Shown: positions 5,480 through 15,809, counted from the first letter of the stretch. The stretch is DNA of 15,872 nt from an uncultured Vicingus sp. (GCA_964422135.1 CAYRAD010000003.1:1-15872); one strand, 5' to 3'. Notes: generated from the sequence alone by a model not told the origin. Translations and numbers: made by a program.

Positions 5480-5497
5480 GTTTCGAAACACTAAGTA

Positions 5498-5577
5498 GAA
5501 CGCGGATAACACAGATGATTATGATAAACACAGAGTTAAATCTTATAAAATCATAACAATCAGCGTCATCTACGTTC
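5498..5577 (+). repeat. intergenic imperfect-palindrome element, copy 1 (80 nt, no nested insert)
   Basis: Sequence: GAACGCGGATAACACAGATGATTATGAT-(24 nt)-ATCATAACAATCAGCGTCATCTACGTTC. The arms are reverse-complementary at about 21 of 28 positions. It starts 18 nt after the stop at 5479 and ends 7 nt before the ATG at 5585. Confidence 0.85.
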
Positions 5578-5584
5578 AAATTAA

Positions 5585-7720
5585 ATGAATATGAAATACA
5601 AAATTGGCATAGATGTAGGAGGAACCTTTACCGACTTTTTTTTGGTAGCTGATAATGGTGATTCTTTGATGCACAAAACGTTATCTACTCCCGAAGATTC
5701 GTCTGAAGGGTTTATAACCGGCTTAAAGGAAATGGCAGAAAAGTTGAATTTGCCAGAAGCTGAGTTCATTGATAACATTGATACTATAGTTCATGGAACT
5801 ACTGTTGCAACAAATGCCTTGTTGACTTTAGGTGGTGCAAAAACCGCATTAATCACTACCAAAGGTTTCCGTGATGCTTTAGAAATGCGAAGAGGAATTC
5901 GTGAAGAACGATATGACAATCACTTTAAAAATGTTACCCCTTTAGTTCCAAGATATTTAAGATATACGATTGATGAAAGAATTGACGCTGAAGGAAATAT
6001 CTTACACAAAGTTGATTACTCAGAGTTAGATGTTATTATTTCAAAACTAAAAGAGGAAAAGGTTGAGGCAGCTGCAGTTTGTTTTATGAATTCTTATTTG
6101 AATAGTGAGAATGAAAACGCAGCAACCGAGTATTTAAGAAAAGCATTACCAGATACATTTATTTCTGCTTCTTATGAAGTATTGCCTTCCGTAAGATTTT
6201 ATGAGAGGGTAAGTACAACTGTTGTAAATGCGTATATCGGAGTAGTGGTAGATTCCTATTTAAAATCATTATTAGGGAAGCTTAAAAAATTAAACTTCAA
6301 CGGTAAGCTAATGATTATGCAATCTAACGGAGGTGTTGTAACTCCTGAGATAGCTTGTAAGATTGCCGCTGTTGCAGTTCTTTCTGGTCCTGCTGCTGCA
6401 CCAATCGCTGGTGCTTATTATGCCAATTTATTAGGATATGATAACTGCATTACCATGGATATGGGAGGTACCAGTTTTGATGCATCATTAGTGGTGAACA
6501 AACAATGTGTTACCAGTACAGATGCTGATATTGATAGATATAGAGTGGCATTGCCAACATTAGATATTATTACCATTGGTGCAGGAGGAGGAAGTATTGG
6601 TTGGGTTGATGAAGGCGGCTTATTGCAGATGGGACCAAAAAGTGCCGGTTCATTGCCAGGCCCAATTTCTTATGATAGAGGTGGCGAGAACCCTGCTTGT
6701 ACAGATGCAGATTTAATCTTAGGATATTTAGATCCTAATTTCTTTGCAGGAGGAAAATACAAATTAAATAAAGACAAAACCATTGAGGTAACCGGGAAAG
6801 TTTTAGGAGAAGGCCTTGGCCTTAGTGCTGAAAAAGCTGCTGCCGGAATGTATAGGGTAATCAACATGAACATGGCACAAGGTGTTCGTCAGGTTTCTGT
6901 AGAAAGAGGTTATGATCCTAGAGAGTTTTTAATGATTTGTGCAGGTGGAGCAGGTTCGATTCACGCTGGAGAAATTTGTCGAGAGTTAGAAATACCAATG
7001 TTTGTAGTGCCTAGTGTTGCACCAATTTTTTGTGCTGCAGGTATGTTGTTGGGCGATTTAAAACATGACTATGTTCGATCATATTTAACAAAACTTTCTG
7101 GTTTAGATAAAGTTGAATTTTTAAGATTGTATGATGAAATGAAGGCTGAAGCAATTAAAACTTTGATTGCAGAAGGAATTACCGAAGATAAAATTGAATA
7201 CATCCCTTCTTTAGATTTAAGATATATCGGTCAATTCCATGAAGTTCCATTAGAGGTTTCTATGGATGATGTTTATGGATTTAATTTGGAAGCAATCAAA
7301 GAAGCTTTTCATAAGGAGCACAGCCGTCAGTTCGGCTACGATTTAAAAGAAGAAGGAACAGAATTGGAAGTAATCAATATTCGATTTAGAGCAGTTGGCA
7401 TTACAGAAAAACCTCATTCATTATCTGGAAATATAGTAAAAGGAGCAAGCACATTAGAGGAAGCTTTAAAAGATAGAAGAATGGCTTATGTTCCTGAAAA
7501 AGATGAAATGCAAGAAGTACCAGTTTATGATGGAGACATCCTGAACAGTAATTTCAAAATTAATGGACCTGCCATTATCGAACAGGTAAACACAACTGTT
7601 TTTTTAGGTGAAAGCTACAATTGCGAAACAGGTATTGGAGGAGCATTTATTGTTTACAACAAAATATTAATGCCCAATGGCTTTAAGAAGAAAAAGGGCA
7701 GTGAGGAAATGGTGAATTAA
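5585..7720 (+). CDS. hydantoinase A / oxoprolinase / acetone-carboxylase-beta family ATPase subunit (HyuA-type)
   Basis: The N-terminus MKYKIGIDVGGTFTDFFLV is diagnostic of Hydantoinase_A family proteins, and MDMGGTSFD is the second ATPase phosphate motif. Length is 711 aa. The start could be the ATG at 5585 or at 5591. Confidence 0.9.
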   Translation: MNMKYKIGIDVGGTFTDFFLVADNGDSLMHKTLSTPEDSSEGFITGLKEMAEKLNLPEAEFIDNIDTIVHGTTVATNALLTLGGAKTALITTKGFRDALEMRRGIREERYDNHFKNVTPLVPRYLRYTIDERIDAEGNILHKVDYSELDVIISKLKEEKVEAAAVCFMNSYLNSENENAATEYLRKALPDTFISASYEVLPSVRFYERVSTTVVNAYIGVVVDSYLKSLLGKLKKLNFNGKLMIMQSNGGVVTPEIACKIAAVAVLSGPAAAPIAGAYYANLLGYDNCITMDMGGTSFDASLVVNKQCVTSTDADIDRYRVALPTLDIITIGAGGGSIGWVDEGGLLQMGPKSAGSLPGPISYDRGGENPACTDADLILGYLDPNFFAGGKYKLNKDKTIEVTGKVLGEGLGLSAEKAAAGMYRVINMNMAQGVRQVSVERGYDPREFLMICAGGAGSIHAGEICRELEIPMFVVPSVAPIFCAAGMLLGDLKHDYVRSYLTKLSGLDKVEFLRLYDEMKAEAIKTLIAEGITEDKIEYIPSLDLRYIGQFHEVPLEVSMDDVYGFNLEAIKEAFHKEHSRQFGYDLKEEGTELEVINIRFRAVGITEKPHSLSGNIVKGASTLEEALKDRRMAYVPEKDEMQEVPVYDGDILNSNFKINGPAIIEQVNTTVFLGESYNCETGIGGAFIVYNKILMPNGFKKKKGSEEMVN

Positions 7721-7724
7721 AAAT

Positions 7725-7823
7725 GAAACGCAGACCTGCCTGCGGTAGGCAGGTAACACGGATGATTATGATAAATACAGGTTTAAACCTTAAAAACCAT
7801 AACAATCAGCGTCATCAGCGTTC
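7725..7823 (+). repeat. intergenic imperfect-palindrome element, copy 2 (99 nt, with nested 19-nt hairpin)
   Basis: Sequence: GAAACGCAGA-[CCTGCCTGCGGTAGGCAGG]-TAACACGGATGATTATGAT...CCATAACAATCAGCGTCATCAGCGTTC. The apex contains the perfect 12-nt palindrome AGGTTTAAACCT. It lies between the stop at 7720 and the ATG at 7858. Confidence 0.9.
7735..7753 (+). repeat. 19-nt GC-rich hairpin module nested in the 5' arm of copy 2
   Basis: CCTGCC-TGCGGTA-GGCAGG forms a perfect 6-bp stem. It sits exactly between the GA and TAACAC that are contiguous in copies 1 and 4. Confidence 0.8.
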
Positions 7824-7857
7824 TAATAAAAAGAATGAATATTAACCTATAAATACA

Positions 7858-8964
7858 ATGGGAAAAGAAATTAAAAATACATTTATTGACGGTTCGATGC
7901 TGATTATTGAAGCATTGGTGAGGTCTGGAGCAGATATTTTTATCGGCTACCCAATAACTCCCTCTAATAGATTTTACTCTTACGGACAGAAAAGATTTTC
8001 ATCTTTTTATCCAGCACCCGATGAAATATCGGTATTGCAATGGATGTCAGGAGCTTCGGCTGCAGGAAAAATACCCGTTACAGCAACTGCATTTCCAGGG
8101 CTGGCTTTAATGGTAGAATCGTTGAACATGGCTTATGTAATGGAATTGCCAATGGTGTTGGTAATTACTCAACGTTTAGGACCAAGCACAGGATCGGCAA
8201 CTATTGGAGCACAAGGAGATTTAGGAATAGTTAACGGAATTATTTCAGGTTTTCCTGTTCCTACTTTTTGTCCAGCTAGCTTTGAGGATTGCTGGTCACT
8301 TTCTCAAAAAGCAATGGAAACAGCTGTTCAATTAAGGACTCCTGTTATTTTATTGACTTCTAAAGAAATGGTGATGACAAGCAAGAGTTTTGACATCTCT
8401 AAATTAGAAGAGATTAAACCTGTAAACAGAGAGAAACCTAAAATTACTGGAGAATATAAATCATATCAAGCTGGAGCAGATTTGATAGCTCCATTTTTAG
8501 ATGTGAATAACAATGAGCATCAGGTTAGAATAAATGCTTCTATGCATAATGAAGAAGGTAGAATTGTGAAAAACGTAGAATCACTAAACATTACTAAAAG
8601 ATTAGCTGAAAAAATTAATACAAAAGCAACGGGGCTTGCTTGTTTTGATTATAAAAAAGAAGAAGGAGCATCTAAATTGATTATTTCTTATGGAATTTCG
8701 GCTTTAGCTGCAATTGATGCAGTTGAAGAAATACAAGCCAAAAATCAAAAAGTTTCTTTATTAATTGTTAAAACGCTAATTCCATTGTCAAATGAAATTT
8801 ACGATATCATTGATTCATACGATGATGTTTTATTTGTAGAAGAAAATTTAAATGGACAATTGAAAGAAATAATTTTCGGGAAACGAAATAACAAAAAAGT
8901 AAAAAGTATAAATAAATCTGGAAGCATGATTGCTCCTTCAGAAATTGTAAACGAATTCGCTTAG
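7858..8964 (+). CDS. 2-oxoacid:ferredoxin oxidoreductase alpha subunit (KorA/PorA-like)
   Basis: GYPITPSN, DEISVLQWMSGASAAGKIPVTATAFPGLALMVESL and QRLGPSTGSATIGAQGDL match the pyruvate/2-oxoglutarate:ferredoxin oxidoreductase alpha core by eye. The gene lies 4 nt upstream of the beta gene. Confidence 0.85.
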   Translation: MGKEIKNTFIDGSMLIIEALVRSGADIFIGYPITPSNRFYSYGQKRFSSFYPAPDEISVLQWMSGASAAGKIPVTATAFPGLALMVESLNMAYVMELPMVLVITQRLGPSTGSATIGAQGDLGIVNGIISGFPVPTFCPASFEDCWSLSQKAMETAVQLRTPVILLTSKEMVMTSKSFDISKLEEIKPVNREKPKITGEYKSYQAGADLIAPFLDVNNNEHQVRINASMHNEEGRIVKNVESLNITKRLAEKINTKATGLACFDYKKEEGASKLIISYGISALAAIDAVEEIQAKNQKVSLLIVKTLIPLSNEIYDIIDSYDDVLFVEENLNGQLKEIIFGKRNNKKVKSINKSGSMIAPSEIVNEFA

Positions 8965-8968
8965 TAAG

Positions 8969-10213
8969 ATGAAAAATGAAATGTTATCAGGAGTAAAAGC
9001 ACCATTTTGTCCGGGCTGCGGGCATGCTCCTTCGGTAAAATATTTATCAAAAGCTTTAACTGAATGTGGATATAATCCATTGGATGTGGTGATGGTAAGT
9101 GATATTGGATGTAATGGATTAATAGATCCATTGTTCAATACACATACTATTCATGGATTGCATGGAAGATCCCCAGCTTTAGCTTTGGGAGTAGTTTTAG
9201 GATTGGAAAATCCAAACAAAAAAGTGGTGACCATGCAAGGAGATGGTGGAGCAACTATAGGATTACAACATCTAATGGAAGCATCAAGAAGAAACGTTGA
9301 TATGACATTGATTGTGATGAACAATTTGATTTATGGAATGACTGGTGGTCAGGTAAGTGGATTGACAACCAACGAGTTTAAAGAAGAAAAACACATTCAG
9401 GACGATGCACCTCCTTTCGATGTATGCCAGTTAGCTCATCAAGCTGGTGCGGCTTATGTTGCTAGAGTAAATAATCCAAAAAATATTACTGAAAAATTGG
9501 TGGAAGCATTTAAAACACCAGGATTTTCGTTAGTAGAAATTTCTAGTTTGTGTCAGCCTTATGGGGCAAAAAAAATAGAGCAATTAACTGGATGGATTAA
9601 AGATGAGGTGTTGCTGAATAATAATTATCCTGTTGGTAAAAATAAAGTGAAAGAAACAGTTTCATTAATAAACGACAAACAGGTTCTTGAAACAAAATAT
9701 CAATCAGCTATAGAAGGCACAGTTGGAATTATTATAGCAGGTTCTGCTGGTGGTGGTGTTCAGTCGGCAGCCAAACTATTGGCAGAAGCAGCTATCATGT
9801 CGGGACTGTCTGCAACAATGAAAGGAGAATATCCTATAACTGTTGGAACAGGGTTTTCGTTAGGAGAAGTTATTTTATCTAAAAATGAGATCAATTACAC
9901 AGGCTTAGAAAAACCAGATGTTTCAATCGTTGTTTCAGATAATGGACTTTTAAAAGTTCAGGGAAAAGGAATTGAACTTCCTAATCTGTATGTAGATGCT
10001 AAAGTTTCCATTCCTGAAAATTTAACAGCTAAAGTTTTTGATTTTGATAAAATGGCTGGGAAAAAAGGTTCTGCTTTATGTGCAATAGCACTTTGGATTG
10101 AAGAATCAGGATTGTTGGACATCAATGCATTAAAAGAAGTTGCCGCAAAACATAAATATGGTGAAAAATTATTAAAAATAATTGACTCATCTAAAGAATT
10201 ACAGGTAGTGTGA
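8969..10213 (+). CDS. 2-oxoacid:ferredoxin oxidoreductase beta (TPP-binding) subunit fused to a gamma-type domain
   Basis: N-terminal FCPGCGH and the TPP motif GDGGATIGLQHLMEASRRNVDMTLIVMNNLIYGMTGGQ indicate a beta subunit. The C-terminal about 170 aa (IIIAGSAGGGVQSAAKLLAEAAIMSGL...YPITVGTGFS...KPDVSIV) looks like the gamma (POR) domain. Confidence 0.85.
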   Translation: MKNEMLSGVKAPFCPGCGHAPSVKYLSKALTECGYNPLDVVMVSDIGCNGLIDPLFNTHTIHGLHGRSPALALGVVLGLENPNKKVVTMQGDGGATIGLQHLMEASRRNVDMTLIVMNNLIYGMTGGQVSGLTTNEFKEEKHIQDDAPPFDVCQLAHQAGAAYVARVNNPKNITEKLVEAFKTPGFSLVEISSLCQPYGAKKIEQLTGWIKDEVLLNNNYPVGKNKVKETVSLINDKQVLETKYQSAIEGTVGIIIAGSAGGGVQSAAKLLAEAAIMSGLSATMKGEYPITVGTGFSLGEVILSKNEINYTGLEKPDVSIVVSDNGLLKVQGKGIELPNLYVDAKVSIPENLTAKVFDFDKMAGKKGSALCAIALWIEESGLLDINALKEVAAKHKYGEKLLKIIDSSKELQVV

Positions 10214-10243
10214 ATGTAGAATTAAGAAAGTAGAATTAAGAAT
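10211..10243 (+). repeat. post-stop short tandem repeat, GTAGAATTAAGAA x2
   Basis: TGAATGTAGAATTAAGAA-A-GTAGAATTAAGAAT starts at the TGA stop of the beta-gamma oxidoreductase gene. The 13-nt unit occurs at 10216-10228 and 10230-10242. Confidence 0.8.
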
Positions 10244-10262
10244 GTATTATGGATAAAAAATA

Positions 10263-10362
10263 GAACGCAGACCTACCTGAGGTAGGAAGGTAAAACGGAT
10301 GATTATGATAACAGTAGATACAAATCTTACAAAATCATAACAGATCAGCGTCATCAGCGTTC
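10263..10362 (+). repeat. intergenic imperfect-palindrome element, copy 3 (100 nt, with nested 19-nt hairpin)
   Basis: Sequence: GAACGCAGA-[CCTACCTGAGGTAGGAAGG]-TAAAACGGATGATTATGAT...ATCATAACAGATCAGCGTCATCAGCGTTC. The apex pairs GTAGAT with ATCTTAC. It lies between the stop at 10213 and the ATG at 10376. Confidence 0.9.
10272..10290 (+). repeat. 19-nt GC-rich hairpin module nested in the 5' arm of copy 3
   Basis: CCTACCTGAGGTAGGAAGG has the same length and position as the module in copy 2, with 16 of 19 positions identical. Its best stem is CCTACC-TGA-GGTAGG, a shifted register. Confidence 0.8.
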
Positions 10363-10375
10363 CAACAAAATAAAA

Positions 10376-12046
10376 ATGAAAATAGACAAAATATTATTGA
10401 GCATTTTTCAACGAGCGTTTAAATCGATAACGGATGAAATGAGTATTTCATTGACTAAGACTACACGTTCTCCAATTCTGTGTGAAGCAAAAGATTTTGT
10501 TACAGGGTTGTATGATGCTGAAGGAAACATGCTGGAACAAACGGAGAATTTACCTATTCTAAGTTTTTCGCTTGGACCAGTTTGTAAAGTTATTTTAGAC
10601 CAGTATGGCGATGATATTTTTGAAGGAGATATTATTATACATAATGATGTGTTCTCTATGGGAAACCAAAATAACGATGTAGCCATTTTCAAACCCATAT
10701 TTTGTGAAGGAACATTAATCGGTTGGTCGGCAGCAAAAGGTCACCAAGCAGATATTGGAGGTGCTGTTCAAGGAGGATATAATCCAAACGCAACAGAAGT
10801 TTGGCAAGAAGCATTGAGAATACCTGCTGTTAAGCTTTATGAAAAAGGAAAATTTAGAGAAGATGTTTGGAACCTGATCTTTGCCAATATTCGATTAACG
10901 ATGGTTCAGGAAGATATTAAAGCTCAAATTGGTGCTTGTAGTTTAGGGGAAAGAAGATTAAAAGCATTGGTTTCTAAATATGGAGTTGAGAGTTACAATG
11001 CGCATAAACAAGAGCTTTTTAACAGTACAGAAACCATGATGCAATCAGAAATTGCATTAGTGCCAAATGGAAAGTACGAAGGAAGTAGCATGGTTTATTA
11101 CGATGGGAAACATCCGGGTTCAAAGTTTGAAATTAAAGCCATTATCACTGTAAAGGATGAAGAAATAATTTTTGATTTCTCAGAAACTTCACCACAAACA
11201 AATGGCTTTGTAAATGGTACTTACACTTCGTCTTGTTCTGCAATTACCTTAACATTTTTACAAATGGTTAATCCTAACATTCCTCATAATCAGGGAATGA
11301 TTCGGCCATTAACTTATATCGTTCCTGAAGGAACTATCTTAAATGCTTCCTATCCAAAAGCAACAACTTTCGGAAACCATTTATGTCCTCAAGTAGCAGA
11401 TTCAATATTTAAAGCATTAGGTCCAGCTATGCCGGGAAGGGTTACAGCTGGTTGGAATCATTTATTGTGTTCATTGTTTACTGGAGATCATCCAAGAACA
11501 AATGAGAAATATGTTGACATCTGTTTTATGGGATTAAAAGGAGGTTCAGGAGCATTAGAAGGAGATGATGGTTATGATCATATTGGGATGATTGATGCTT
11601 CTGGAGGATTGTTGGATCAGGATTATGAAATGTACGAACAACAAACACCTCATTTAATTCTAAAACACGAATACCTAACTAACTCTGGCGGAGTTGGAAA
11701 ATGGAGAGGTGGTTTAGGGGTTGAAACCAATATAAAAATGGGTGGAGATAATGCTACAATGGTTGTTTTTGGTGATGGTGATGTGGAACAGAATTATGGT
11801 CTTTTCGGAGGAAAAGGAAGTGTTTTAAACAGCATCTCATTAACCTATCCTGACGGAAAAGAGCATGTGCCAATGAGTAAAGATATTGTTGAAGGAATTC
11901 CGGATGGAACCATTTACAAACAAATTGCTGGAGGTGGTGGTGGATACGGAAACCCTAAAGAAAGAGATAGAGATTCTGTAAAATTGGATTTATTAAATGA
12001 AGTGATAACTGAAGAACAAGCGGTTAATGAATATGGATTGAAATAA
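10376..12046 (+). CDS. hydantoinase B / oxoprolinase family subunit (HyuB-type)
   Basis: N-terminus LLSIFQRAFKSITDEMSISLTKTTRSPILCEAKDFVTGLYDAEGNMLEQ and the later GGSGALEGDDG and GGVGKWRGGLG segments are typical of Hydantoinase_B proteins. Confidence 0.9.
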   Translation: MKIDKILLSIFQRAFKSITDEMSISLTKTTRSPILCEAKDFVTGLYDAEGNMLEQTENLPILSFSLGPVCKVILDQYGDDIFEGDIIIHNDVFSMGNQNNDVAIFKPIFCEGTLIGWSAAKGHQADIGGAVQGGYNPNATEVWQEALRIPAVKLYEKGKFREDVWNLIFANIRLTMVQEDIKAQIGACSLGERRLKALVSKYGVESYNAHKQELFNSTETMMQSEIALVPNGKYEGSSMVYYDGKHPGSKFEIKAIITVKDEEIIFDFSETSPQTNGFVNGTYTSSCSAITLTFLQMVNPNIPHNQGMIRPLTYIVPEGTILNASYPKATTFGNHLCPQVADSIFKALGPAMPGRVTAGWNHLLCSLFTGDHPRTNEKYVDICFMGLKGGSGALEGDDGYDHIGMIDASGGLLDQDYEMYEQQTPHLILKHEYLTNSGGVGKWRGGLGVETNIKMGGDNATMVVFGDGDVEQNYGLFGGKGSVLNSISLTYPDGKEHVPMSKDIVEGIPDGTIYKQIAGGGGGYGNPKERDRDSVKLDLLNEVITEEQAVNEYGLK

Positions 12047-12065
12047 AATAGAAATCAGAAATCAT

Positions 12066-12185
12066 TGTCAATTCGAGTGATTTTTTGAAACGTAGTGGAG
12101 AAAAATTGTATCGAGAATAAATGATTTTAGAAAAAGTTGTTCTCGTTACATTTTGACTAAAAAAGTCAAAACACTCGAACGGACA
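12066..12185. mobile_element. MITE-like 120-bp long-hairpin element
   Basis: The ends TGTCAATTCGAGTG (12066-12079) and CACTCGAACGGACA (12172-12185) are reverse-complementary at 12 of 14 positions. An inner inverted repeat AAATTGTATCGAGAA (12103-12117) / TTCTCGTTACATTTT (12140-12154) matches at 13 of 15. A further small hairpin TTTTGACT-AAAAA-AGTCAAAA lies at 12151-12171. There is no ORF of its own. A mobile origin is an inference. Confidence 0.5.
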
Positions 12186-12207
12186 CTTTTTGAGAAATAT
12201 AAAAATT

Positions 12208-12621
12208 ATGAGCACACACGAAACAATATTACCGGAAGGTTGGCCAACACCCAAAGGATATGCTAATGGAATATTAGCCGCTAAAGGAAGAACACTTTTT
12301 CTAGCCGGACAAGTTGGTTGGTCAGCTGAGGAGAAATTTGCAAGCGATAAATTGGTTCCTCAATTTGAACAAGCTTTAAAAAACATTGTTGCAATTGTAG
12401 AGAAAGCTGGAGGCAAACCAACAGACATCTGCAAAATGACATGTTTCTGTAAAGATAGAGACCAATATTTAGCAACAAGGGGTGAGCTTGGGACAATATG
12501 GAAAAATATCATGGGAAGACATTATCCATGCATGAGCATGATTTTCGTAGTTGATTTATTGGATCATCCTGCTTTAATAGAGATAGAAGCTATGGCTGTG
12601 ATTCCTACGAATTACGAATAA
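12208..12621 (+). CDS. RidA/YjgF/TdcF (endoribonuclease L-PSP) family protein
   Basis: PKGYANGILAAKGRTLFLAGQVGW and a C-terminal LIEIEAMAV are family-typical. I prefer the ATG at 12208 (MSTHE...) over the ORF-track TTG at 12190, which lies only 5 nt past the end of the repeat element. Confidence 0.8.
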   Translation: MSTHETILPEGWPTPKGYANGILAAKGRTLFLAGQVGWSAEEKFASDKLVPQFEQALKNIVAIVEKAGGKPTDICKMTCFCKDRDQYLATRGELGTIWKNIMGRHYPCMSMIFVVDLLDHPALIEIEAMAVIPTNYE

Positions 12622-12634
12622 ACGAATTACGAAT
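12607..12634 (+). repeat. tandem ACGAATTACGAAT x2 spanning the RidA stop and the GxxExxY start
   Basis: Units are at 12607-12619 and 12622-12634. The first encodes the RidA C-terminus and the T of its stop codon. The second ends in the first two bases (AT) of the ATG start at 12633-12635. Confidence 0.8.
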
Positions 12635-13052
12635 GACAGGATATACAGTAAAAAATAAAGATTTATTATTTCCAAAACTTTCATATAAGATTGTAGGAAT
12701 CTTATTTGATGTTTATAATACATTGGGTTATGGGTATTTGGAAAAATATTATCAAAAGGCTATTGCTGCTCAGCTTAAGAAAGAAAAAATAAAATTTACT
12801 GAACAAGAAAAGGTTGAGATTGTTATTGCAAATGAGGTTATAGCAAAAGGATATACTGATTTTATTATTGAGGATAAAATTATTTTGGAAATTAAAAAAG
12901 GCAATTCTTTTAGAAAAAACAATATTGATCAATTACACAGTTATTTAAAAATGAAAAAAATGGAATTAGGAATTCTTGCAAATTTCACATCAAAAGGCTT
13001 GTTGTATAAGCGGATAGTTAATATTAGTAATTCTAAAATTCGTAATACGTAG
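12633..13052 (+). CDS. GxxExxY-motif protein, PD-(D/E)XK nuclease-fold superfamily
   Basis: The eponymous motif is present as GYLEKYY within FDVYNTLGYGYLEKYYQKA. A D...ExK motif follows in TDFIIEDKIILEIKKG. Size is 139 aa. The gene is flanked by ACGAATTACGAAT-type repeats. Confidence 0.8.
   Translation: MTGYTVKNKDLLFPKLSYKIVGILFDVYNTLGYGYLEKYYQKAIAAQLKKEKIKFTEQEKVEIVIANEVIAKGYTDFIIEDKIILEIKKGNSFRKNNIDQLHSYLKMKKMELGILANFTSKGLLYKRIVNISNSKIRNT
13027..13046 (-). repeat. inverted partner of the ACGAATTACGAAT repeat at the 3' end of the GxxExxY gene
   Basis: GTAATTC (13027-13033) and ATTCGTAAT (13038-13046) are reverse complements of GAATTAC and ATTACGAAT in the upstream tandem units. Confidence 0.55.
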
Positions 13053-13056
13053 TACT

Positions 13057-14184
13057 ATGAATTTCGAACTAAACGACATACAAAAATCCGTACAACAAAC
13101 TTTTATAGATTTTGTTGATAAGAGGGTGATGCCTCAGGCAGCAGCAATTGATGAAAATGCTGAATTCCCTATGGAACTTTTTAAGGAAGTTGGAGAATTA
13201 GGGTTTTTTGGCATGCGTTATCCTGAAGATGCTGGTGGTACCAATATGGATATTCTTTCATACTGTTTAGCAGTGATAGAACTTTCAAGGGGCTCGATGT
13301 CGCTTGCTGCAGCTTGCACAATGCAATCACTAATGGCAACTTATTTCTTATATCGATTTGGTGATAAGGAAGTAAAAGGTCATTTTGATGCTGCCATGAA
13401 AGGGGAGGAAATAGGTGCTATCTGCATGACTGAACCCAATGCCGGAAGTGATTTGTTTGCTATCAAAACAAAAGCATTGGTGAAAGAAGATTACTTTTTG
13501 TTGAGTGGTCAAAAAACATGGGTTACATCTGCACCAGTTGCCAACTTTTTTACTGTCTTGGCAAAAACAGATAACCACGATAAATTATCCATCTTTTTTG
13601 TTCCATCTAATTTGGAAGGGGTAACTGTCGGAAAGAAAATTGACAAATTAGGGGCTTGTGGTTCCGTAACCAGTGAGGTTGCTTTTGACAATGTAAAACT
13701 TCCAAAAAACTACTTATTAGGTGAGATTGGTGGGGGAACAAAATGTTTAATGGAGATATTGGCAGAGATTAGAATTATGACTGCTGCACTATCTATTGGT
13801 GTTGCAACAGCTGCTTTTGAAGATGCATTACAATATGCCAAAGAAAGAGAACAATTTGGAAAGCCTATTGGAAAATTTCAAGCAGTAAAAATGAAGTTTG
13901 CAGAAATGGAAGTTCAACTACAAACAGCTAAACATTATGTGTTTTACGCAGCTTATTTAAGCGACAACAATTTACCTCGACATAAAGAATCAATGATTGC
14001 CAAATTGTATGCATCAGAATGTGCCAACTCTATTTGCGACCAAGCTTCAAGAGTTTTAGCATCTTATGGTTATGCAACAGAATACTCGCTGCAACGCTAT
14101 TTACGTGATGCTCGATTTACATTGATTGGTGGAGGTACATCAGAAATTTTGAAAATAAATATAGGTAGAGAGTTGGGATTGTAG
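13057..14184 (+). CDS. FAD-dependent acyl-CoA dehydrogenase
   Basis: Typical ACAD layout: GFFGMRYPE, CMTEPNAGSDL, KTWVTSA, QYAKEREQFGKPIG. The C-terminal motif is IGGGTSEI, which resembles isovaleryl-CoA dehydrogenase IGAGTSE rather than the YEGTS of MCAD/SCAD. Confidence 0.9.
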   Translation: MNFELNDIQKSVQQTFIDFVDKRVMPQAAAIDENAEFPMELFKEVGELGFFGMRYPEDAGGTNMDILSYCLAVIELSRGSMSLAAACTMQSLMATYFLYRFGDKEVKGHFDAAMKGEEIGAICMTEPNAGSDLFAIKTKALVKEDYFLLSGQKTWVTSAPVANFFTVLAKTDNHDKLSIFFVPSNLEGVTVGKKIDKLGACGSVTSEVAFDNVKLPKNYLLGEIGGGTKCLMEILAEIRIMTAALSIGVATAAFEDALQYAKEREQFGKPIGKFQAVKMKFAEMEVQLQTAKHYVFYAAYLSDNNLPRHKESMIAKLYASECANSICDQASRVLASYGYATEYSLQRYLRDARFTLIGGGTSEILKINIGRELGL

Positions 14185-14189
14185 AATGA

Positions 14190-14208
14190 TGAATGTCGAA
14201 TTAAGAAT
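14190..14208 (+). repeat. single copy of the TGAATGTNGAATTAAGAA module
   Basis: TGAATGTCGAATTAAGAAT matches 10211-10229 at 17 of 18 positions. It lies 6 nt after the acyl-CoA dehydrogenase stop codon. Confidence 0.75.
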
Positions 14209-14219
14209 AGAATATGAAT

Positions 14220-14285
14220 TGTCACTTCGAGTGATTTCGAGGAACGAGAAATTGTATCGAGAAGTATATAAATTGAAAACAGACA
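14220..14285. repeat. shorter relative of the 12066-12185 element
   Basis: TGTCACTTCGAGTGATTTCGAGGAACGAGAAATTGTATCGAGAAG aligns with the left part of the 12066 element (TGTCAATTCGAGTGATTT...AAATTGTATCGAGAA). The right end AACAGACA resembles AACGGACA. It ends 1 nt before the ATG at 14287. Confidence 0.55.
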
Positions 14286-14286
14286 A

Positions 14287-15666
14287 ATGAGTTATATAAA
14301 AGAATACAGTATTGCATTACCTGAGTTTAGAATCTCAAATAAAACCCTACACCCCAGGTTAGGAAGAAAGGGTCAACATGCTGTTTGTTATACAGATGAA
14401 GATATTGTTACACTAGCATATCAAGCCGCATCCAATTTGAAACATGAAACTTTAAACTTGAAAATTGATGGAGTCATTTTCGCAACAACAACTCCAGTTT
14501 TTAAAAGCAGGTATCATGCTTCTTATGTTGCAGATATATTGGGTTTAAAACAAGGAATCTTAGCAATGGATTTAGGAACAAGTGTTAGAGCTGGTTCTGA
14601 TGCACTATTGATGGCTGATAAATTGATAAAGAGTGGTGAATACAAAAATATTTTGGTTATTGCTGCTGAGGTTTACTATCCTGAAATAGGAAAAGAAACT
14701 CGAGCAGCTTTTGGTCACGCTGGGGTTGCAATGCTTATTGCTGCTGATGAAGGAATTGCTGAAATAACGAATACTAAATCATACTCATCAGCTTTAGCAG
14801 AAGAGTTTAATTACAAAGGAGAAGCCGTTCAGTACGATGCTCGTTTTGCTAGAACAGAAGGATTTAAAAAGAACCTCGATTTAGCATTGAAATTAAGTAA
14901 CATCGATGCTGAGAAAGTTAACCAAGTGATACTTCATTCTCCTTATGCTAAAATAGCTTTCGGACAATTAAAGAAAGCTGGGTTTGATTTGGAAAAACAG
15001 TTAATGAAAGATACTGTTGCCAATGAAGTTGGAAATACAGGAGCTTGTCATGGATTACTTTTATTAATAAATGCTATTGAAAATGGTCAAGGAAACGTTG
15101 TTTTATTTGATTATTTAAATGGAACGAATGTAATCGAAATTAATAGTTGTCACCCTGAACTTGTCGAAGGACAATCATTTAATCATCAATTTACAGACAT
15201 TGAAACCTATCAAGATTATCTCACCTTAAGAAAACAAGGAAAGTTTACAGGTCGAGGATATGAATCTATTGATATGTTCTCTTCTGAAATGATTAGTGAA
15301 AGAGAAAAAGAGGGCTTGATGTATTTAAAAGGTTACGAATGTGCTAAATGTGGAACAGTATATTACATGAGAGCAGCAAGATGTAATGCATGTCATCATA
15401 CTGAATTCAAACAAAAACAACTAGGTAAAAAAGGGACAGTCTATACTGTAACCAGCGAACATTATTTCCCCAATTCATTTGCACCAACAAATATGGTAAT
15501 CATTGATTTAGATGGAGGAGGAAGAGTAACTGTTCAACAAACAGATGACATGTCCCCTTCTGAAGCAAATACAATTAACATTGGAGATAAAGTGGAATTG
15601 GTATTAAGAAAAATGATGGAGAATGATAAGAAGCCGAACTACTTTTGGAAGTGCATAAAAGAATAG
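14287..15666 (+). CDS. fusion: HMG-CoA synthase-like thiolase-fold domain plus C-terminal DUF35-type zinc-ribbon/OB-fold domain
   Basis: The first 320 aa or so align by eye with HMG-CoA synthases (FATTTPVF..ILGL, GHAGVAMLIA, LHSPYAKIA, VGNTGA). The C-terminal about 120 aa carry CAKC...CNAC (zinc ribbon) followed by an OB-like segment GTVYTVT...IIDLDGGGRV, as in DUF35 proteins. Confidence 0.8.
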   Translation: MSYIKEYSIALPEFRISNKTLHPRLGRKGQHAVCYTDEDIVTLAYQAASNLKHETLNLKIDGVIFATTTPVFKSRYHASYVADILGLKQGILAMDLGTSVRAGSDALLMADKLIKSGEYKNILVIAAEVYYPEIGKETRAAFGHAGVAMLIAADEGIAEITNTKSYSSALAEEFNYKGEAVQYDARFARTEGFKKNLDLALKLSNIDAEKVNQVILHSPYAKIAFGQLKKAGFDLEKQLMKDTVANEVGNTGACHGLLLLINAIENGQGNVVLFDYLNGTNVIEINSCHPELVEGQSFNHQFTDIETYQDYLTLRKQGKFTGRGYESIDMFSSEMISEREKEGLMYLKGYECAKCGTVYYMRAARCNACHHTEFKQKQLGKKGTVYTVTSEHYFPNSFAPTNMVIIDLDGGGRVTVQQTDDMSPSEANTINIGDKVELVLRKMMENDKKPNYFWKCIKE

Positions 15667-15783
15667 AACGTAGATAACGCAGATGGTTATGATTAATTAT
15701 GATAAAATAAAGAAAGCTAAAGAATTGGATGTTAGCAAAATCAAATCATTTTCTATCATAAAAAATCAGTGTCATCAGCGTTC
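15666..15783 (+). repeat. intergenic imperfect-palindrome element, copy 4 (118 nt, expanded centre, no nested insert)
   Basis: Sequence: GAACGTAGATAACGCAGATGGTTATGAT-TAA-TTATGAT...ATCATTTTCTATCATAAAAAATCAGTGTCATCAGCGTTC. The inner TTATGAT/ATCAT motif is duplicated on both arms. The first base is the G of the TAG stop at 15664-15666, and the element ends 26 nt before the ATG at 15810. Confidence 0.85.
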
Positions 15784-15809
15784 CATTAATTGGTAGATAA
15801 ATTATAAAT

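Follow-up and report, generated by a model that had tools for sequence, protein, structure and literature searches.

Four imperfect palindromes of similar sequence lie in the spacers of a single operon in an uncultured Vicingus sp., which raises the question of what these repeats are and how they came to be there. The DNA of the host genome examined in this study is a 15,872-nucleotide stretch (GCA_964422135.1 CAYRAD010000003.1:1-15872), hereafter the window. A preliminary description of the window had offered three candidate roles for the repeats: a selfish element of the REP/BIME or MITE type, a structure tuning mRNA processing, stability or translation, and a paired protein-binding site. 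The reading favored here, to which we assign a probability of about 75%, is that a small selfish cassette carrying a GxxExxY gene gave rise, by internal deletion, to the four repeats as MITE-like, non-autonomous copies, with movement driven by the encoded nuclease. The repeat is the remnant of a gene cassette, which is beyond what the preliminary description could see.

Four short elements in one operon

All four copies were recovered at the positions first described (Table 1); they measure 80-118 nt and occupy gaps between genes of a single + strand operon. In the window, the 3' arm pattern ATCAGYGTCATCWRCGTTC has four exact + strand matches, and the 5' arms of copies 1 and 4 account for two further matches, on the - strand and with 2-3 mismatches. 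By chance, 0.02 matches would be expected, and six matches were reached in 0 of 200 shuffles. In an nhmmer scan of the window with an arm profile, the arms of copies 1-4 were the sole significant matches. The reported coordinates of the arms hold, but the conserved tips run 3-4 nt further outward (AATRGAAC...GTTCYATT), and the 5' arm had been drawn in copies 2 and 3 to include a separate, GC-rich nested hairpin of 19 nt. Copies 2 and 3 are sisters, with 80% identity over 84 nt.

As first described, each copy sits between a stop codon and the next start codon, with upstream gaps of 18, 4, 49 and 0 nt and downstream gaps of 7, 34, 13 and 26 nt for copies 1-4, respectively; the tip TAG of copy 4 is itself the stop codon of the gene upstream. 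No rRNA was detected in the window, and all of the copies lie between protein-coding genes. Copy 1 contains a vestigial start codon at 5515 (ATG ATT ATG ATA AAC ACA GAG) and a vestigial gene end, AAATCTTATAAAATCATAA, at approximately 5538-5556, such that a GxxExxY gene is still represented by its first 7 codons and its last 3-4. The 5' end of this copy agrees with that of a full-length cassette (L205) at 35/39 positions, and the 3' end at 35/40. The gene-start remnant of copy 4 reads ATG GTT ATG ATT AAT TAT GAT AAA, and a single deletion junction is common to copies 1-3. Because every copy retains a vestigial gene start and end, orientation can be defined, and every one of them is sense-oriented, as had been claimed.

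Table 1. Positions of the short elements and the intact cassette in the window
Feature	Coordinates	Strand	Details
Copy 1, short gene-less element	5495-5580	+	Core 5498-5577; ends match full-length cassette L205
Copy 2, short element	7722-7826	+	Core 7725-7823; nested hairpin CCTGCCTGCGGTAGGCAGG within 5' arm at 7735-7753
Copy 3, short element	10260-10365	+	Core 10263-10362; nested hairpin CCTACCTGAGGTAGGAAGG within 5' arm at 10272-10290
Copy 4, longer short-form element	15663-15786	+	Core 15666-15783; gene-start codons retained
Intact GxxExxY cassette, second repeat type	12605-13052	+	Left repeat CTACGAATTACGAATAAACGAATTACGA at 12605-12632; ORF 12633-13052

Full-length cassettes and their deletion derivatives

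Scanning genomes with the 3' arm identified at least 120 loci, and 92 among the matches listed have element-like arms and tips; their hosts are Bacteroidota, Ignavibacteria, Chloroflexota, Methylobacter, Parabeggiatoa, Nitrospirota, Nitrospinota, Planctomycetota and Kiritimatiellae. The family is present in at least eight bacterial phyla, including Gammaproteobacteria, with host range and copy numbers representing a sample rather than a census. The loci, which were examined over 2-22 kb, were selected by exact matches to one arm, and therefore the conservation of that query arm is partly by construction. The family tip consensus is AATRGAACGCnGATGACGCnGAT...ATCnGCGTCATCnGCGTTCYATT, and its outermost part, AATRGAACGC (n = 369), lacks a conserved head of the GTAG or CGTC type. 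Tandem arrays of elements occur at some loci (L101, L152, L242, L256). No description of this cassette or repeat family was found in the literature searched.

The full-length parents are approximately 450-480 bp long and consist of the same inverted repeats flanking one gene that encodes a GxxExxY (PF13366) protein of 125-138 aa; 15 cassettes with this ORF between ends of the short-copy type were identified. Their termini are two inverted repeats of ~40 nt made of 9-10-nt units, (GA)CGCnGAT on the left and ATCnGCG(TC) on the right. The gene begins inside the left repeat (GCAG ATG ATT ATG ATG AAC GCA GAT, encoding MIMMNAD), and it runs into the right repeat, which holds its terminal codons (KNLI) and its stop codon. 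The 128 non-redundant metagenome matches comprised 9 full-length cassettes, 9 with partial N- plus C-terminal pieces (residues 4-26 and 116-134 remain in L232, for example) and 110 short elements, a graded deletion series that connects the parents with the short form.

Cassettes are found in short spacers, typically right after a stop codon and mostly between co-directional genes. With gene orientation called by a long-ORF heuristic rather than a gene finder, the genes on both sides of intact cassettes ran in the direction of the ORF in every case (13/13 upstream, 13/13 downstream; p = 2.4e-4), while gene-less short copies across the family were split between sense (25) and antisense (28). In the window lineage, all 13 short copies seen (4 in the window, 8 in L122 and 1 in L271) are sense, a bias that the 50:50 orientation of the family leaves unexplained.

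The window also contains an intact cassette of a second repeat type. Its ORF encodes 139 aa and has the right repeat ATTCGTAATACGTAG at its extreme end, and the left repeat CTACGAATTACGAATAAACGAATTACGA ends the RidA gene upstream by providing its stop codon. Second-type relatives occupy the same RidA-ACAD junction in L272-L275 and also occur within a Planctomycetota atp operon (L276). The RidA-ACAD spacer is 0 nt in L270 (TAAATG) and 6 nt in L124, and the window-clade cassette is absent from this junction in the closer relatives L124, L270 and L121; this patchy occupancy may also reflect vertical descent with losses. Window-clade proteins (71-75% identical) occur with ACGAAT-type repeats in both Bacteroidota and Planctomycetota, and a short form of this repeat exists (L235, 3976-4067). 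Repeat type follows protein clade.

The GxxExxY protein

The only domain matches of the partner ORF are PF13366 and TIGR04256. Among the nine GxxExxY ORFs compared, dN/dS was 0.04-0.18 at dS of ~1-3. The protein has invariant D, ExK and QxxxY residues, and the AlphaFold model (pLDDT 91.7) has Cas4 SSO0001 as its best fold match, followed by lambda exonuclease, RecE and AdnAB. GxxExxY is therefore predicted from the model to be a RecB/Cas4-like PD-(D/E)XK nuclease, and the gene is considered functional because of its low dN/dS, invariant residues and Cas4-like predicted fold.

Filled and empty sites in relatives

The orthologous operon of L124 (hydA 88% identity) is almost empty, with 9 nt between ECH and hydA (the site of copy 1) and 26 nt between hydA and hydB (the site of copy 2); hydA and hydB are 11 nt apart in L121 and 1 nt apart in L270. 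Ahead of hydB, L124 has only CATCGGTGTTCCAACAAAATG, which resembles the 3' end and flank of copy 3. At the junction of copy 4, the flanking genes overlap by ATGA in both L124 and L121, which represents the empty state, while L122 has a different copy there. L122 (89%) carries approximately 8 copies at other junctions, and L271 has one short copy at RidA-ACAD, where L270 reads TAAATG. Since orthologous operons of close relatives have empty sites, the copies evidently come and go. No excess of 2-8-nt direct repeats was observed at any boundary offset among 146 elements, and a fixed AT dinucleotide duplication would be indistinguishable from the conserved tip. A perfect 63-nt duplication flanks one of the elements (L122, 16223-16341).

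Proposed origin of the repeats

When internal deletion removes the gene, an imperfect palindrome of 80-120 nt is left, and this short, gene-less form has itself multiplied. Intact cassettes, which have no evident promoter, probably depend on read-through transcription of the host operon, as the uniform direction of their flanking genes suggests. Their product, the RecB/Cas4-like PD-(D/E)XK nuclease, would recognize the repeat units and drive the movement of full and short forms, either by transposition or by homing-like repair. The copies in the window operon would be passengers, with any effect on mRNA stability or processing being incidental. The idea that GAACGC/GCGTTC forms a paired protein-binding site serving as an operator of this operon is not supported, as the same ends occur in unrelated operons of unrelated phyla; the element ends are probably protein-recognition sites of the element itself. 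More tentatively, and at somewhat less than even odds in our estimation, GxxExxY cassettes may represent an unrecognized class of mobile element, in which a RecB/Cas4-like nuclease recognizes the 9-10-nt units and moves the cassette and its derivatives to positions after stop codons, without target duplication, across phyla. If true, this would assign a function to the uncharacterized family PF13366/TIGR04256. The nuclease could instead be a passenger or addiction-type gene.

Alternative explanations

The stop-to-start position and sense orientation of all four copies could suggest that they are selected cis-acting RNA hairpins of the polycistronic mRNA, acting as RNase III or processing sites, 3'-end stabilizers or translation spacers, and similar stems in ORF-containing 23S rRNA intervening sequences are indeed cut by RNase III (PMC4990558). 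The hairpin folding first described is also real, as + strand folds were better than shuffles in all four copies (z -3.7 to -5.0). However, the - strand is more stable in every case (-30.7 vs -20.7 kcal/mol in copy 1, -36.4 vs -29.8 in copy 2, -29.3 vs -25.0 in copy 3 and -29.8 vs -24.9 in copy 4), and a caution about antisense folding that the preliminary description had raised for copy 1 was therefore both correct and general. Arms of 28-40 nt in 67 elements had a mean complementarity of 81.9% over 28 positions, compared to 82.3% when arms were paired across copies (at or above the observed value in 385/500 shuffles), and the covariation score between arms was 0.093 vs 0.091 in shuffles, i.e., no covariation. 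The two variable (n) arm positions were unpaired in 40/67 and 56/67 elements, mostly as A.A or T.T mismatches. Because pairing and covariation equal those of shuffles, the n positions are mismatched and the antisense strand folds better, the repeat does not represent an RNA structure under selection; its capacity to form hairpins comes as a by-product of having inverted repeats. The near-equal family-wide orientation of short copies and the spacers of ~0-26 nt at these junctions in the same operon of close relatives also argue against selected hairpins, which we regard as highly improbable, and the proposed role in mRNA processing, stability or translation tuning is accordingly not upheld. Near-random orientation without covariation had been named beforehand as the mark of a neutral selfish repeat, and this is essentially the pattern observed. 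A permissive covariance-model scan of the whole window against Rfam 15, a comparison that had been recommended, yielded no family match, with one chance-level hit (E = 0.57) outside the copies. The copies were rightly said not to be intrinsic terminators: no + strand site was found within any of them, and one terminator-like site on the - strand lies in the nested hairpin of copy 2.

The remaining alternatives concern how the elements move. Ordinary MITEs could be mobilized by a conventional transposase encoded elsewhere, with GxxExxY as cargo such as a selfish or defence-type nuclease. The gene is absent from most copies (110/128), multi-unit subterminal repeats are typical transposase-binding sites, and no PD-(D/E)XK protein of 130 aa is known to be a transposase. 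This explanation is nevertheless rather unlikely, given that in two unrelated repeat families the repeats themselves contain the start and stop codons of the gene, that protein clade and repeat type go together across phyla, that no transposase gene was seen adjoining the ~270 loci inspected in an unsystematic look and that no variable target duplication was detected among the 146 elements. Cassette shuffling within the operon at attC-like recombination sites would fit the bracketing of the POR_N/TPP_C gene pair by the sister copies 2 and 3, the location of this pair elsewhere in L121 and its absence from the L122 and L124 operons, the different genes that other relatives carry at the same junctions and the better fold of the bottom strand. 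Integron attC cores are RYYYAAC and GTTRRRY; the tips ATRGAAC/GTTCYAT do not fit them, with C-Y-A at the RRR positions, no integrase domain was found among the window proteins, and the elements stand singly in ordinary operons of many phyla in both orientations, which makes this explanation even less probable than selected hairpins. The least probable is a REP/BIME-type element mobilized by a RAYT (Y1) transposase: intergenic palindromes, occasional tandem arrays and undetectable target duplication would agree with it, but the elements are 80-120 nt long rather than 20-40 nt, the gene between the ends is a PD-(D/E)XK gene rather than a Y1 transposase, and the tip AATRGAAC lacks the GTAG or CGTC that defines REP head types (PMC3733652).

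Comparison with known systems

REP/BIME elements with RAYT share with the present family their extragenic palindromes, arrays at times and lack of obvious target duplication, but differ in length, tip sequence and associated gene. Of the selfish elements first suggested, it is the MITE-like form that is supported, because of presence/absence in relatives, spread over many phyla and a longer coding partner with the same terminal repeats.

Free-standing homing endonuclease genes of phages, together with the PD-(D/E)XK enzyme I-Ssp6803I, are similar in placing a small, host-transcribed nuclease gene between conserved genes and in patchy junction occupancy, as at RidA-ACAD, which is filled in the window and L272-L275 and empty in L124 and L270. 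However, homing genes usually do not have long inverted-repeat ends, nor do they have gene-less derivatives that multiply at many sites.

The intervening sequences in the 23S rRNA of Leptospira and Coxiella (~430-760 nt) have a terminal inverted-repeat stem of at least ~28 bp around one small ORF of unknown function, encoding an S23p four-helix bundle; they are sporadic and horizontally transferred, with gene decay in some hosts and a mobility mechanism that is unknown (PMC4990558). Size, sporadic horizontal spread and gene decay are common to both systems, as is the stem with one ORF in the full-length cassettes, though not in the four short copies. The cassettes differ in lying in protein-coding operon spacers rather than rRNA helices, in having an ORF with a nuclease fold rather than a four-helix bundle and in reaching many copies per genome.

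Compared to MITEs, the partner here is a RecB/Cas4-like PD-(D/E)XK protein of 125-138 aa instead of a known transposase such as a DDE enzyme, the gene both starts and stops within the repeats, the variable target-site duplication of classical transposase-driven MITEs is not detectable, and the same ends occur across at least eight phyla. Like MITEs, the elements have terminal inverted repeats, are small (<500 bp), non-coding, AT-rich and intergenic, occur in many copies at different loci with presence or absence differing among relatives, and arise through internal deletion of a longer, gene-bearing element that has matching ends, with the short form amplifying as such.

Gene-less copies and their parent cassettes

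The four intergenic palindromes of the operon (copies 1-4, see table) are gene-less remnants of a cross-phylum family of GxxExxY cassettes and not an RNA regulatory device. All four were recovered where the preliminary description had placed them, each, as it had claimed, between a stop codon and the following start codon. Within the window, the 3' arm consensus has four exact + strand occurrences and two further degenerate − strand occurrences, the latter being the 5' arms of copies 1 and 4; these six matches compare with a chance expectation of 0.02 and were reached by none of 200 shuffles, while a profile search of the window recovered the arms of copies 1-4 only. The window is a single + strand operon in which the gene order, by Pfam, is HGD-D, BcrAD ATPase, 3HCDH/ECH, hydantoinase A (hydA), POR_N, TPP_C, hydantoinase B (hydB), RidA, PDDEXK_3, acyl-CoA dehydrogenase and a thiolase-like/OB-fold protein. 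The next gene, of which only the first 21 codons lie inside the window, is a thiolase in relatives.

The inner 3' arm is asymmetric (AAATCTTATTTAATCATAA), and a metagenome scan with that pattern returned at least 120 loci, in many of which the arm lies directly 3' of a GxxExxY/PDDEXK_3 C-terminus. Fifteen cassettes hold a GxxExxY ORF, or its near-complete remains, between both arms, and they establish a constant architecture. Their left end reads ...AATAGAACGCAGATAACGCAG ATG ATT ATG ATG AAC GCA GAT AAT TAT AAA..., so that units 3-4 of the left repeat also serve as the start and first codons; their right end reads ...AAA AAT CTT ATT TAA TCATAAAAATCAGCGTCATCAGCGTTC, so that the last codons and the stop are inner units of the right repeat. 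The 128 non-redundant metagenome matches listed demonstrate a deletion series, with 9 at full length, 9 retaining N- and C-terminal pieces without the middle (L232, for instance, keeps residues 4-26 and 116-134, and L238 residues 3-17 and 98-134) and 110 short.

Copy 1 reads GAACGCGGATAACACAG ATG ATT ATG ATA AAC ACA GAG, then TTAAATCTTATAAAATCATAAC..., which amounts to the first seven codons of the parent gene fused to its last three or four, and it is identical to the two ends of one cassette (L205) at 35/39 and 35/40 positions. Copies 1-3 have one deletion junction in common, and copies 2 and 3 also have in common a 19-nt GC-rich hairpin cleanly inserted in the 5' arm; the short form itself has therefore multiplied. 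Copy 4, which retains ATG GTT ATG ATT AAT TAT GAT AAA, is a member of a longer short-form lineage.

Small GC-rich hairpins are also nested, at varied positions, in family members L095, L119, L109, L118, L068 and L199, and such hairpins may be a separate tiny mobile element. The in-frame fusion of gene start and gene end leaves 13-codon mini-ORFs in copies 1 and 3, which are probably meaningless but would be translated if their start is used. A small peptide (KSYFNHKDLRHLR) runs through the 3' arm of the copies in L122, an operon orthologous to the window's. It was set aside as a candidate independent coding feature, with no separate support seen, and resembles a remnant or read-through product of the C-terminal end of the gene (compare the protein end ...IFNHKQSASSAV at L239). 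Other window spacers carry two more small repeat families, both of which look like further decayed inverted-repeat elements.

Table. Positions of repeat elements and associated features in the window
Feature	Position	Strand	Remarks
Copy 1	5498-5577	+	
Mini-ORF in copy 1	5515-5556		MIMINTELNLIKS, then stop
Copy 2	7725-7823	+	
Nested hairpin in copy 2	7735-7753		CCTGCCTGCGGTAGGCAGG
POR_N/TPP_C gene pair	7858-10213		
First small repeat family	10209-10254 and 14174-14219		GTAGAATTAAGAA-type
Copy 3	10263-10362	+	
Nested hairpin in copy 3	10272-10290		CCTACCTGAGGTAGGAAGG
Mini-ORF in copy 3	10298-10339		MIMITVDTNLTKS, then stop
Second small repeat family	12064-12092 and 14218-14246		ATTGTCA(A/C)TTCGAGTGATTT; the 14218-14246 copy runs on into ...CGAGGAACG
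Intact GxxExxY (PF13366) cassette, ACGAAT-type inverted repeats	12605-13052	+	between RidA and acyl-CoA dehydrogenase; architecture as in the GAACGC-type
Left repeat of cassette	12605-12632	+	CTACGAATTACGAATAAACGAATTACGA; directly before ATG; RidA stop codon inside
Right repeat of cassette	at end of ORF (12633-13052)	+	ends ...ATTCGTAATACGTAG; TAG is both stop codon and tip
Copy 4	15666-15783	+	

A second repeat type

In addition to the GAACGC-type repeats of copies 1-4, the window contains an intact cassette with repeats of a second, ACGAAT type. At the same RidA and acyl-CoA dehydrogenase junction in four comparison loci (L272-L275), the GxxExxY proteins are 75% identical to the window's. 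A Planctomycetota MAG (GCA_040753835.1; L276 2931-3390) carries a cassette between atpG and atpD, with a protein 71% identical to the window's and a perfect ACGAAT-type inverted repeat of 32 nt, a striking cross-phylum transfer into a core operon (ATP synthase gamma/beta). A gene-less ACGAAT-type derivative of 92 nt lies at L235 3976-4067. Together, these comparisons indicate that a repeat type travels with its protein clade across phyla and that every type has a short form of its own.

Family size and hosts

The 3' arm pattern ATCAGYGTCATCNNCGTTC, scanned against 185,579 species-representative genomes (596 Gb), returned at least 120 loci; for a pattern of this length, we estimate that about a hundred matches would arise by chance. 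Even so, among the matches listed, 92/120 have additional ATC units on the upstream side together with the conserved tip. The hosts among these listed matches include Flavobacteriia, Bacteroidia, Saprospiraceae, Ignavibacteria, Anaerolineae, other Chloroflexota, Methylobacter, Parabeggiatoa, Competibacteraceae, Nitrospirota, Nitrospinota, Planctomycetota and Kiritimatiellae. The family consensus is AATRGAACGCnGAT-GACGCnGAT-(7-10 nt ending in GAT) x1-2 ... mirror image ... ATCnGCGTC-ATCnGCGTTCYATT, with information falling to background four bases past GTTC. Near-identical non-coding ends recur in Bacteroidota, Chloroflexota, Proteobacteria, Nitrospirota and Planctomycetota, and this implies that the family has spread horizontally more than once. 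Viral contigs, scanned as a control, gave 22 arm-pattern matches; all fall in ordinary coding sequence lacking both arms and tips and are chance matches, so that no evidence of a phage vector was obtained.

Head-to-tail tandem arrays were observed at L101 3041-4701, L152 124-834, L242 and L256. The repeated unit is either a whole element (period 105 nt, in L101) or half an element (period 97 nt); half-element arrays are regularly spaced and resemble a minisatellite made from the element. Spacers of orthologous operons also hold other low-complexity periodic sequences (L121 9871-10001, L268 2102-2239 and 4380-4456, L271 14686-14765), such as GGAAGATGGGAGT... and (CT)AAACT(CT)AAAC runs, which precede start codons.

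Gain, loss and orientation

Orthologous operons, found via homologues of the window's hydantoinase A, demonstrate that copies are gained and lost between relatives. In L124 (88% identity), the spacer between the 3HCDH/ECH gene and hydA is 9 nt and that between hydA and hydB is 26 nt, the latter carrying a remnant that resembles the end of copy 3, and at the site of window copy 4 the OB-fold gene overlaps the thiolase gene by ATGA. L122 (89%) has about eight copies, all sense, at other junctions of the same operon, while the junction between RidA and acyl-CoA dehydrogenase holds one copy in L271 (89%) and reads TAAATG in L270 (91%). Another gene junction is empty in one relative (L185 7307-7337, 27-nt spacer), holds a GAACGC-type short copy right after TAA in a second (L041 821-953) and, in a third (L161 ~1447-2007), holds, right after TAG, a ~560-nt insert whose periodic ends are of a third kind (GGTAAAAGGTATCT... 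/ ...ACAAGATACC). The insertion target is apparently the position just behind a stop codon.

Gene pairs flanking an element are co-directional in 75/86 cases versus 353/490 for other adjacent pairs at the same loci (odds ratio 2.6, p = 0.003). Intact cassettes follow a demonstrable orientation rule, being co-oriented with both the upstream and the downstream neighbour in all assessable cases (13/13 and 13/13, p = 2.4e-4), whereas short copies are 25 sense and 28 antisense. We read this difference as dependence of the gene on read-through transcription, with orientation becoming irrelevant once the gene is lost. Target-site duplications of 2-8 nt showed no excess over shuffled expectation at any boundary offset, and sigma-70-like promoters were not enriched (59 found versus 62 expected, with a model that does not cover Bacteroidota promoters).

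At L122 16149-16417, a short element lies between the two copies of a perfect 63-nt direct duplication, in which the acyl-CoA dehydrogenase gene is represented by its first 62 nt, so that an intact gene restarts after the element; among ~170 elements checked, this was the only one with a long flanking repeat. The POR_N/TPP_C pair is found between hydA and hydB in the window only, where sister copies 2 and 3 flank it; in L121 it follows the acyl-CoA dehydrogenase gene, and the L122 and L124 operons lack it. Across the relatives compared (L121, L122, L124, L270, L271 and L272), the same junctions hold hemerythrin, PALP, DUF4238, a Por_Secre_tail protein and RUBY_RBDX. These operon junctions are hot spots for gene insertion.

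Sequence conservation without selected RNA structure

The preliminary description had proposed that the copies can fold as hairpins and might act as structures in the operon mRNA. Folding itself was upheld, with all four copies beating shuffles on the + strand (z -3.7 to -5.0), as was the caveat about the antisense strand, on which the fold is more stable in 4/4 window copies. A selected role in the mRNA was not borne out. Arm pairing was assessed in 67 distinct elements at 28 arm pairs each, against shuffles in which the 3' arms were redealt among elements. Paired cells made up 81.9% versus 82.3% after shuffling (385/500 shuffles at or above the observed value), and the covariation score of 0.093 versus 0.091 (195/500) gave no sign of structural covariation in these 67 elements. 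The variable "n" positions are unpaired in 40/67 and 56/67 elements, both arms usually carrying one identical base when read on the same strand (A/A or T/T). G-to-A changes occur in one arm without C-to-T in the other, and A-T pairs number 3 and 2 versus ~4.6 and 2.4 calculated under independence. The arms thus hold their consensus independently of each other, which is what recognition of each end by its sequence would predict and not what a selected hairpin would. In full-length cassettes, the unselected 5' arm stays near consensus while the neighbouring gene has reached saturation at its synonymous sites (dS ~1-3); conservation of the 3' arm is partly by construction, as the search pattern fixed that arm.

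The lack of covariation and the mixed orientation of the short copies correspond to the outcome that the preliminary description had tied to a neutral selfish repeat. A family-wide preference for the antisense fold (24 antisense-better versus 12 sense-better) was judged not convincing because one tandem array accounts for 6/24 and the window for three more. By its features the element is not a REP/BIME element, an attC site, a terminator or an Rfam family, and a permissive Rfam scan of the window returned nothing relevant.

The GxxExxY protein and its possible role in mobility

Values of dN/dS between 0.04 and 0.18 among nine cassette ORFs demonstrate purifying selection on the nuclease-fold gene. 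The window's protein (PF13366, TIGR04256), aligned with 33 homologues, has invariant D76, E86, K88, Q100 and Y104, a D...ExK...QxxxY pattern. No solved structure matched in a PDB sequence search with a cassette protein. For the AlphaFold model (pLDDT 91.7), the top PDB fold match is Cas4 SSO0001 (E = 8e-6, TM ~0.5), other matches being lambda exonuclease, LHK-Exo, RecE, AdnAB and MGME1 and, more weakly, tRNA-splicing endonucleases and Hjc; by this predicted fold, the gene product is a nuclease. A superfamily survey entered PF13366 as "Unknown", with multiple transfers between divisions (PMC3424549). In the literature searched, GxxExxY received passing mentions only, and no description of these elements was found.

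The nuclease is inferred to recognize the periodic repeat units and to move the element, with short copies mobilized in trans. The window copies would be passengers, their hairpins having at most an incidental effect on operon mRNA. The main rival is that a transposase moves the elements and the GxxExxY gene is cargo. Should the nuclease turn out to be the mobility enzyme, the family would use compact components for a new chemistry of transposition or homing.

Interest attaches to the family rather than to copies 1-4. For these copies, a concrete, testable origin as decayed gene cassettes supplants a speculative "operon RNA structure", and the cassettes provide the first genomic context found for GxxExxY, a very large protein family. 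The elements also bear on annotation, in that they supply stop codons, as for the gene upstream of copy 4, whose stop lies inside the tip, and that some gene calls run on into them, as for hydA and the OB-fold gene of L122. In addition, they lengthen the "intergenic" spacers of otherwise tightly coupled operons.

The element behaves like a MITE with its autonomous partner, but differs in having no recognized transposase and no visible target duplication. The closest resemblance is to the ORF-containing intervening sequences of 23S rRNA (PMC4990558), from which the element is distinguished by its location in mRNA operons and by the different gene that it carries.
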